Assembly (NCBI GenBank): GCA_001783145.1
Contig: MFQT01000017.1
Location: 30,119 to 94,118 of the forward strand
DNA: 64,000 nucleotides
DNA from: Candidatus Magasanikbacteria bacterium RIFOXYB2_FULL_38_10
GTDB lineage: Bacteria; Patescibacteriota; Patescibacteriia; Magasanikbacterales; UBA10003
Direction of reading: 5' to 3'
The notes below the pieces were generated by a model. It did not search any database. It was not told the origin of the DNA and was given only the letters and a program-made list of their open reading frames with translations. Position numbers and translations under genes: made by a program. Positions 6,367-6,439 of this stretch are shown here, one piece after another (the first letter of the stretch is position 1; every line of letters starts with the position of its first letter).

Positions 6367-6439
6367 TTAATAATAAATTTATCTTTTTTGCAGACGATGG
6401 CTTTAGTCCGCGGCGCAAAAAAGATAAATTTATTATTAA
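6367..6439. repeat. perfect 25-bp inverted repeat with 23-nt GC-rich spacer
   Basis: ttaataataaatttatcttttttgc (6367-6391) and its exact reverse complement gcaaaaaagataaatttattattaa (6415-6439). Spacer agacgatggctttagtccgcggc contains a candidate ATG (6397). Confidence 0.8.

Follow-up and report, generated by a model that had tools for sequence, protein, structure and literature searches.

Filler-DNA capture occurs at double-strand-break repair junctions. In bacterial mRNAs, 5′-terminal stem-loops act as stabilizers, as in the E. coli ompA leader and in the Bacillus aprE and ermC leaders, and RNase III processing sites also occur in 5′ leaders, e.g., those of rnc and pnp. Ripley reportedly described quasipalindrome mutagenesis as a class of template-switch (fold-back) mutations that form hairpins, and Löytynoja and Goldman are said to have formulated a four-point model of template-switch mutation. 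Template switching is documented to produce a perfect hairpin stem by one event (PMC8794818).

Here, we consider a perfect inverted repeat in the DNA of a member of Candidatus Magasanikbacteria, an uncultivated CPR bacterium, within a 64-kb stretch that was analyzed at its full length and that we refer to as the window. Its best explanation, to which we assign a probability of roughly 0.6, is a fold-back or template-switch insertion that gave the mRNA of a translin-like gene a 26-bp hairpin close to its 5′ end.

A perfect inverted repeat ahead of a translin-like gene

The repeat consists of two 26-nt arms (6366-6391 and 6415-6440) that are complementary at 26/26 positions, with 0 mismatches; the left arm reads TTTAATAATAAATTTATCTTTTTTGC, and the right arm is its exact reverse complement. 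The original prediction of a 25-bp perfect inverted repeat described something real and perfect, although each of its two ends has to be extended by one base, which lengthens the arms to 26 nt, and the GC-rich 23-nt spacer that it reported is present as described (6392-6414, AGACGATGGCTTTAGTCCGCGGC, 61% GC). A perfect repeat of 26 nt is far beyond chance, as had also been claimed: across 200 second-order Markov simulations of the window, in which we recorded perfect inverted repeats with spacers of ≤150 nt, the maximum was 12 to 19 nt. Predicted folding energies of the region are −31 to −34 kcal/mol for RNA (z of about −5.3) and −25 kcal/mol for DNA (z of −9.1). An assembly artifact is excluded because the same 75 nt lie inside contigs of five independent assemblies (NCBI GCA_000996105.1, an ENA scaffold, JGI 3300025081, and two Logan runs); a single short contig ends within the repeat.

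The window holds two other long inverted repeats, both AT-rich and imperfect and neither related in sequence to the repeat at 6366-6440. One (41968-42042) has 33-nt arms matching at 82% and a 9-nt spacer; the other (55370-55450), with 24-nt arms matching at 88% and a 33-nt spacer, is situated mostly within an ORF (54646-55440), just ahead of the next start codon.

The gene order around the repeat runs from MraY, FtsW, and MurG through a tRNA-Lys gene (−) and a near-consensus promoter with a long structured leader to a 492-aa ORF of ~70% GC; 3′ of this ORF come a structured 3′ UTR with a terminator, the repeat, the translin-family gene, a GT2 glycosyltransferase, and a Mur ligase. Together, MraY, FtsW, MurG, and the Mur ligase constitute a cell-division and cell-wall cluster. 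We compared this arrangement with that in seven relatives, whose translin proteins are identical to that of the window at 96% (L007), 77% (L011 and L012), 73% (L013), 71% (L008 and L009), and 70% (L010) of positions. The features between the GC-rich ORF and the translin-like gene are as follows.

6285-6340 (+), intrinsic terminator of the GC-rich gene: stem ACCGGCAATC (6285-6294) paired with GATTGCCGGT (6324-6333), with T8 at 6333-6340.
6326-6354 (+), promoter of the translin-like gene, located by a promoter scan; the window, L007, L010, L011, and L013 share its arrangement.
6355-6389 (+), ancestral AT-rich leader of the translin-like gene, which aligns with the L011 and L007 leaders and contains the left arm.
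6366-6391 (+), left arm (26 nt): native leader, except perhaps for its terminal GC, as judged from complementarity, deletion models, and leader alignments.
6392-6414 (+), GC-rich loop of 23 nt, probably a captured foreign fragment, which holds ATG 6397; it is absent from relatives and has aminotransferase matches.
6397-6450 (+), in-frame, stop-free 18-codon extension MALVRGAKKINLLLNKII, a product of the insertion that occurs in no homologue.
6415-6440 (+), right arm: derived, exact reverse-complement copy of the leader.
6441-6450 (+), 10 nt (TAAAATCATT), the sole unpaired stretch from the hairpin to the start codon.
6451-7029 (+), translin-like gene of 192 aa, with a match to Pfam Translin (PF01997); homologues begin at the equivalent of MPLNQKYF.

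The terminator has a 29-nt loop that contains an inner hairpin, as read from the sequence. Its stem is kept in five lineages (the window, L007, L010, L011, and L013), each with a T-run after the stem, and one pair is fully compensated across the five, occurring as G-C, C-G, or A-U. The repeat does lie shortly downstream of this terminator, as was originally noted, but at a distance of 25 nt from the T-run (6333-6340) rather than 27 nt. The translin-like promoter comprises a −35 box (TTGCCG, 6326-6331), a 17-nt spacer, and an extended −10 box (TGcTAAAAT, 6346-6354), and the pattern TTGC(C/T/G)G, 17 nt, TGnTAAAAT is common to the window and the same four relatives. Because its −35 box falls within the 3′ strand of that stem, terminator and promoter form an overlapping module (6285-6354, +), conserved in the window and four lineages with the compensatory stem change. 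Transcription of the translin-like gene is predicted to start near 6360-6362.

Translin homologues are 190 to 193 aa long and cover just 90 to 91% of the 210-aa ORF that begins at ATG 6397, so the true start is ATG 6451, 10 nt past the repeat, and the repeat is therefore noncoding leader. The repeat had been said to overlap possible start codons of this gene; ATG 6397 is indeed in the loop and in frame, but the homologue lengths rule it out as the start codon and place the real one downstream. ATG 6397 has no Shine-Dalgarno sequence and lies within a foreign-looking loop, with double-stranded RNA predicted directly upstream, and the 18-codon extension (6397-6450) is probably not translated. 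By a rough estimate, an extension from the loop ATG would be in frame and stop-free by chance in ~5% of cases, which leaves room for selection. In the public annotation (LBYK01000001.1), the translin-like protein is called as 210 aa, with its start in the hairpin loop, and public gene calls also include a 528-aa antisense ORF (4551-6137, −) across the GC-rich gene. Both look like annotation errors, and of practical value to annotators is that the 210-aa call is probably 18 codons too long.

Related lineages lack the repeat

The comparison with related genomes that the original prediction had proposed shows the same gene order in five related lineages, none of which has a comparable inverted repeat at the locus. 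In four relatives (L007, L010, L011, and L013), the distance from the −10 box to the ATG is 25 to 33 nt, vs 96 nt in the window. Relatives’ leaders are AT-rich and unstructured (z of −0.8 to +1.0, vs −5.3 in the window), and their T-tract ends 0 to 3 nt ahead of the ATG. Since four outgroup lineages agree, absence of the repeat is the ancestral state.

The flanking DNA of L007 and the window has diverged by ~11%, and yet there are 0 mismatches in the 26 pairs of the stem, which suggests that the insertion event was recent. L007, at 96%, is the only close relative, and there is no intermediate allele among the relatives. In this intergenic region, L008 (6184-7881, −) and L009 (2031-3578, −) have a Peptidase_M28-like gene inserted between the GC-rich and translin-like genes; as this 71% lineage holds an extra gene at the spot, the spot repeatedly accepts insertions.

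The left arm is the native leader

The leaders of relatives allow the old and new parts of the structure to be told apart. Positions 6355-6389 (11 nt plus the left arm) align end to end with the L011 leader, which reads, as aligned, GATTTTAAT ... TTTATCT ... TTTTT and then ATG, at a score reached by 0/2,000 shuffles, and the same stretch matches the L007 leader at p = 0.02. The right arm, when taken as the leader, has no significant match to the relatives’ leaders (p = 0.07 to 0.64). Among empty-site models, the best single deletion removes 6389/6390-6448/6449 (summed score of +25). Because the whole-leader alignments and this best deletion model both favor it, we regard the left arm as native leader. 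By BLAST, the L007 match runs on into either arm, since the core that the arms share, ATAAATTTAT, is itself palindromic.

Two other partitions of the structure were considered and rejected. That the right arm is the ancestral one is ruled out by the deletion models and the shuffles, with the whole-leader alignment to L011 deciding for the left arm. That both arms were inserted is ruled out by the empty-site scores, in that models deleting both arms fit the relatives worst (summed scores of −4 and −22, vs +25).

These comparisons show an insertion of ~61 nt (6390-6450) between the leader T-tract and ATG 6451, consisting, in order, of GC and the 23-nt loop, an exact reverse-complement copy of the preceding 24 to 26 nt, and then TAAAATCATT. 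A fold-back origin calls for one arm that is ancestral at the same position in outgroups, as the left arm is, and for a nearby exact reverse-complement arm that outgroups lack, as they do the right arm. We therefore read the repeat not as a conserved regulatory device but as a structural mutation of the translin-like 5′ leader that is young and specific to this lineage.

The loop matches aminotransferase genes

When a 19-mer from the loop was queried against metagenome contigs, two contigs matched (L050 and L051). Positions 6392-6415 are identical, at 24/24 nt, to a gene for a DegT/DnrJ/EryC1 aminotransferase in L051, and positions 6394-6415, at 22/22 nt, to a gene for a class I/II aminotransferase in L050. 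Both matches coincide with the extent of the loop. Although these genes belong to two different Pfam families, both matches are on the opposite strand, in frame, over the peptide TPRTKAIV; read antisense, the loop itself encodes APRTKAIVC, in which PRTKAIV is a motif of fold-type-I PLP aminotransferases. Two hits are about the expectation for a random 19-mer (a rough estimate, given that the exact size of the collection is uncertain), whereas coincidence would account for the 24-nt match at ~1% (also rough, assuming a collection of ~10^12 bases). A chance match is unlikely because the identity extends over 24 nt and because both genes have the motif in frame. No relative has the loop at this locus, it was not found in viral contigs, and neither it nor its motif has a second copy within the 64-kb window. 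To judge from the matches, it was probably captured from a PLP-aminotransferase gene of high GC content.

A fold-back model for the insertion

In the ancestor, as in the relatives compared, the conserved promoter that overlaps the terminator preceded a leader that was short, AT-rich, and unstructured and whose T-tract adjoined the ATG. Under the fold-back model, a 3′ end, either nascent or broken, would first have gained GC-rich filler (~25 nt of aminotransferase-like coding scrap) and would then have folded back to prime on its own strand, for which the self-complementary GC at 6390-6391 and 6415-6416 may have served as microhomology. The folded-back end would have copied its own leader backwards over ~24 nt before resuming on the template that it had left.

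Beyond this GC dinucleotide, no microhomology is visible where the switch is proposed to have taken place. A plain template switch, moreover, expects the loop to be ancestral, whereas here it is aminotransferase-like and absent from relatives; because the loop is foreign, an extra step must be assumed, which could be either filler capture or a larger, earlier insertion that was later trimmed.

Possible consequences for the mRNA

As it is located between the conserved promoter and the start codon, the repeat should be transcribed as a 5′-proximal stem-loop. Transcripts from ~6361 would include, between ~+5 and ~+80, a hairpin with 26 bp and a folding energy of about −31 kcal/mol, which would sequester the old leader and leave 10 unpaired nt before AUG 6451. 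The 5′-proximal stem might protect the mRNA from 5′-end-dependent decay, its 26 bp might be a substrate for RNase III, or it might dampen the initiation of translation. The hairpin could thereby affect expression of the translin-like gene. An RNA stability or attenuator hairpin was among the roles first suggested for the repeat, and this suggestion survives insofar as a transcribed 5′ stem-loop is concerned but not as a conserved device, the structure being young and lineage specific.

Whatever its mutational origin, the hairpin might be adaptive, i.e., fixed because it altered translin-like expression, whether as a 5′ stabilizer, an RNase III site, a translational brake, or the source of an N-terminally extended protein from AUG 6397. 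This reading concerns the fixation of the hairpin, not its origin, and we consider it unlikely, although it has several points in its favor. The insertion is fixed and identical in independently assembled samples, pairing is perfect despite the ~11% divergence of the flanks from those of the nearest relative, the stem lies at ~+5 relative to a conserved promoter, with 10 nt separating it from the AUG, and the reading frame opened by ATG 6397 continues into the gene without a stop codon. Against it, the hairpin is not conserved beyond one clonal population, relatives work with an unstructured leader, and youth explains the perfect pairing equally well; as for the extension, it occurs in no homologue, and the loop AUG is without a Shine-Dalgarno sequence and flanked by double-stranded RNA. 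Somewhat less probable still is the more specific proposal of a cis-regulatory hairpin caught at birth, in which one fold-back, seeded by a captured scrap of a foreign aminotransferase gene, made a stem-loop that now controls the translin-like gene by RNase III processing or 5′-end protection, or gives an extended isoform from the loop AUG, and that selection has fixed in this population.

Mobile elements, operators, and other classes

An improbable alternative is that the repeat is a MITE or foldback element of 65 to 75 bp, with perfect terminal repeats, that entered the leader at TTAA or at AT-rich sequence. It is compact, has perfect terminal repeats and a foreign core, and shows presence/absence polymorphism relative to the 96% relative, and the palindromic TTAA at both of its ends could hide a target duplication. 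However, the left arm is native leader, and removal of both arms leaves the empty site that fits the relatives worst. There is also no unambiguous direct target duplication and no direct repeat at the ends; TAAAAT (6349-6354 and 6441-6446), which we considered as a target duplication, was rejected because the implied empty site would put the −10 box just 4 nt ahead of the ATG, unlike in the relatives.

Nor do further copies point to such an element. Within the 64-kb window, a search for the left arm at ≤3 mismatches returned no second match (0 expected), and the best secondary matches of the repeat by short-word BLAST were 12-mers. An exact 20-mer from the arm had 34 hits in representative genomes (185,579 species, with the source genome not returned) and 2 chance hits in viral contigs; the former are single and unrelated, and none of either set has a partner arm or an extension. 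Matches of the repeat by blastn to phage and plasmid collections are unconvincing, being just AT-rich chance matches of ≤35 nt. The genome-wide search for copies that had been suggested, run as scans of the window, the representative genomes, and the viral contigs, hence yielded no further paired copy. The original prediction had named a dispersed family of AT-rich palindromes as the finding that would speak against it, and the repeat is, to the contrary, unique in the 64-kb window, where REP- or BIME-like elements would be represented by many imperfect intergenic palindromes. Its proposal that the arms are the joined termini of a mobile element does not hold, as the left arm is the gene’s own ancestral leader and no further copies were found in these scans.

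It is very improbable that the repeat acts as an operator for a dimeric DNA-binding regulator, another of the roles first put forward, or as a cruciform-forming promoter element. Perfect dyad symmetry near a promoter is what such elements would have, but we know of no operators with 26-bp half-sites separated by 23 bp, a 23-nt spacer disfavors cruciform extrusion, the repeat is downstream of the predicted transcription start, and its absence from relatives means that no coevolved regulator is to be expected.

Three further classes were examined. An intrinsic terminator was rejected for want of a U-tract: the stem is AT-rich and has 26 bp, the loop has 23 nt, AUAAAAUCAUU comes next on the plus strand, and the minus strand has no T-run; the true terminator is the one at 6285-6340, upstream of the repeat. 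As an integron attC site, it would lack the bulges in its pairing and a GTTRRRY-type core, and there is no recombinase among the neighboring genes. An Rfam scan of the repeat returned only generic microRNA-precursor models, below threshold (31.6 bits vs a threshold of 80).

The GC-rich neighbor is an old syntenic gene

The repeat was originally placed at the right boundary of an “accessory locus,” which it might mark as a recombination site. The GC-rich ORF, however, is upstream of the translin-like gene at the same position in every relative examined, and it is this placement in all relatives that identifies the locus as a syntenic gene of long standing rather than a recently gained island. 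The gene is syntenic in L008, L009, L010, L011, L012, and L013, i.e., in relatives without the repeat, so that the repeat does not bound an island. In relatives, the gene keeps its promoter, structured leader, and terminator, and its GC3 is 0.78 to 0.99 wherever the full ORF is readable. The least credible of all the readings is a recombination or attachment site, or joined termini, at the right edge of an acquired GC-rich cassette: GC does fall sharply (~70% to ~37%) some 200 nt upstream of the repeat, and a tRNA-Lys with a partial copy of its 3′ end is present on the other side of the GC-rich gene, but the gene and its promoter, leader, and terminator are at the same position in all relatives, none with the repeat, the repeat is inside the translin-like leader and thus 3′ of the terminator-promoter module that relatives share, and no integrase or transposase is adjacent. 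For annotation, the GC-rich gene should not be treated as a recent island bounded by the repeat.

Several other features of this gene were recorded. The ORF occupies 4677-6155 (+) in the window (492 aa), 4656-6113 in L010, 4446-5918 in L008, and about 287-1795 in L013. Its GC contents by codon position are 0.69, 0.42, and 0.95, vs a GC3 of 0.31 to 0.43 in other genes of the genome. The protein, which ends in a K/G/R-rich C-terminal tail, has no match in Pfam, NCBIfam, or PHROGs and is just 29 to 46% identical between lineages whose flanking translin proteins are 70 to 71% identical. Ahead of the ORF (4457-4676, +) is a near-consensus promoter (TTGACA, a 17-nt spacer, and TG-TATGAT), and a long hairpin (4501-4640, +; −69 kcal/mol, z of −5.2) is followed by a strong Shine-Dalgarno sequence. 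A long structured leader is present in relatives too, with a conserved GG(T/C)TGGGCG element. On the minus strand (4236-4260 and 4302-4377), a ~21-nt copy of the 3′ end of tRNA-Lys(UUU), TGGTGACCCGGCTGGGGATCG, is situated 66 nt beyond the intact gene and may be the scar of an old integration. The gene is evolving fast and is vertically syntenic, with its extreme GC3 being maintained, and this neighbor, with a GC3 of 0.78 to 0.99 in AT-rich genomes, is more surprising than the repeat.

Comparison with known systems

The insertion described here is one more replication or repair error that makes a perfect hairpin in one step, in an uncultivated CPR bacterium, and alone it matters little. The case is unusually clean, in that the ancestral state is readable from relatives and the filler in the loop is traceable to a coding motif.

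With MITEs and foldback elements, the repeat shares its small size, perfect terminal inverted repeats, AT-rich context, and presence or absence between close strains; unlike them, it is single copy, has one “terminal repeat” that is native leader, and lacks both a target-site duplication and a related autonomous element. The resemblance to the ompA, aprE, and ermC leaders lies in a stable stem a few nucleotides from the predicted 5′ end and upstream of the ribosome-binding region. Those elements are conserved, functionally tested, and have short stems, whereas the structure here is an unconserved, perfect 26-bp duplex at a 5′ end that is predicted. As at the rnc and pnp leader sites, the leader would contain a perfect RNA duplex longer than two helical turns, although, in contrast to those sites, the hairpin is not conserved and its cleavage is only conjectured.

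The loop is like captured filler DNA in being a short piece of unrelated coding DNA (24 nt, with an aminotransferase motif) at a rearrangement junction, but its capture is deduced from identity to metagenome genes. The closest counterparts are template-switch mutations (Mönttinen and Löytynoja 2022, PMC8794818). The present case departs from them in its loop, which is a foreign GC-rich fragment and not ancestral local sequence, in the extra 10 nt (TAAAATCATT) after the copy, which imply a more complex event than the simple model, and in the length of the copied tract, which at 24 to 26 nt is long for the class. It is like them in combining an ancestral arm with an adjacent exact reverse-complement copy and in being a single clustered change, absent from outgroups, that yields a perfect stem able to fold as RNA.
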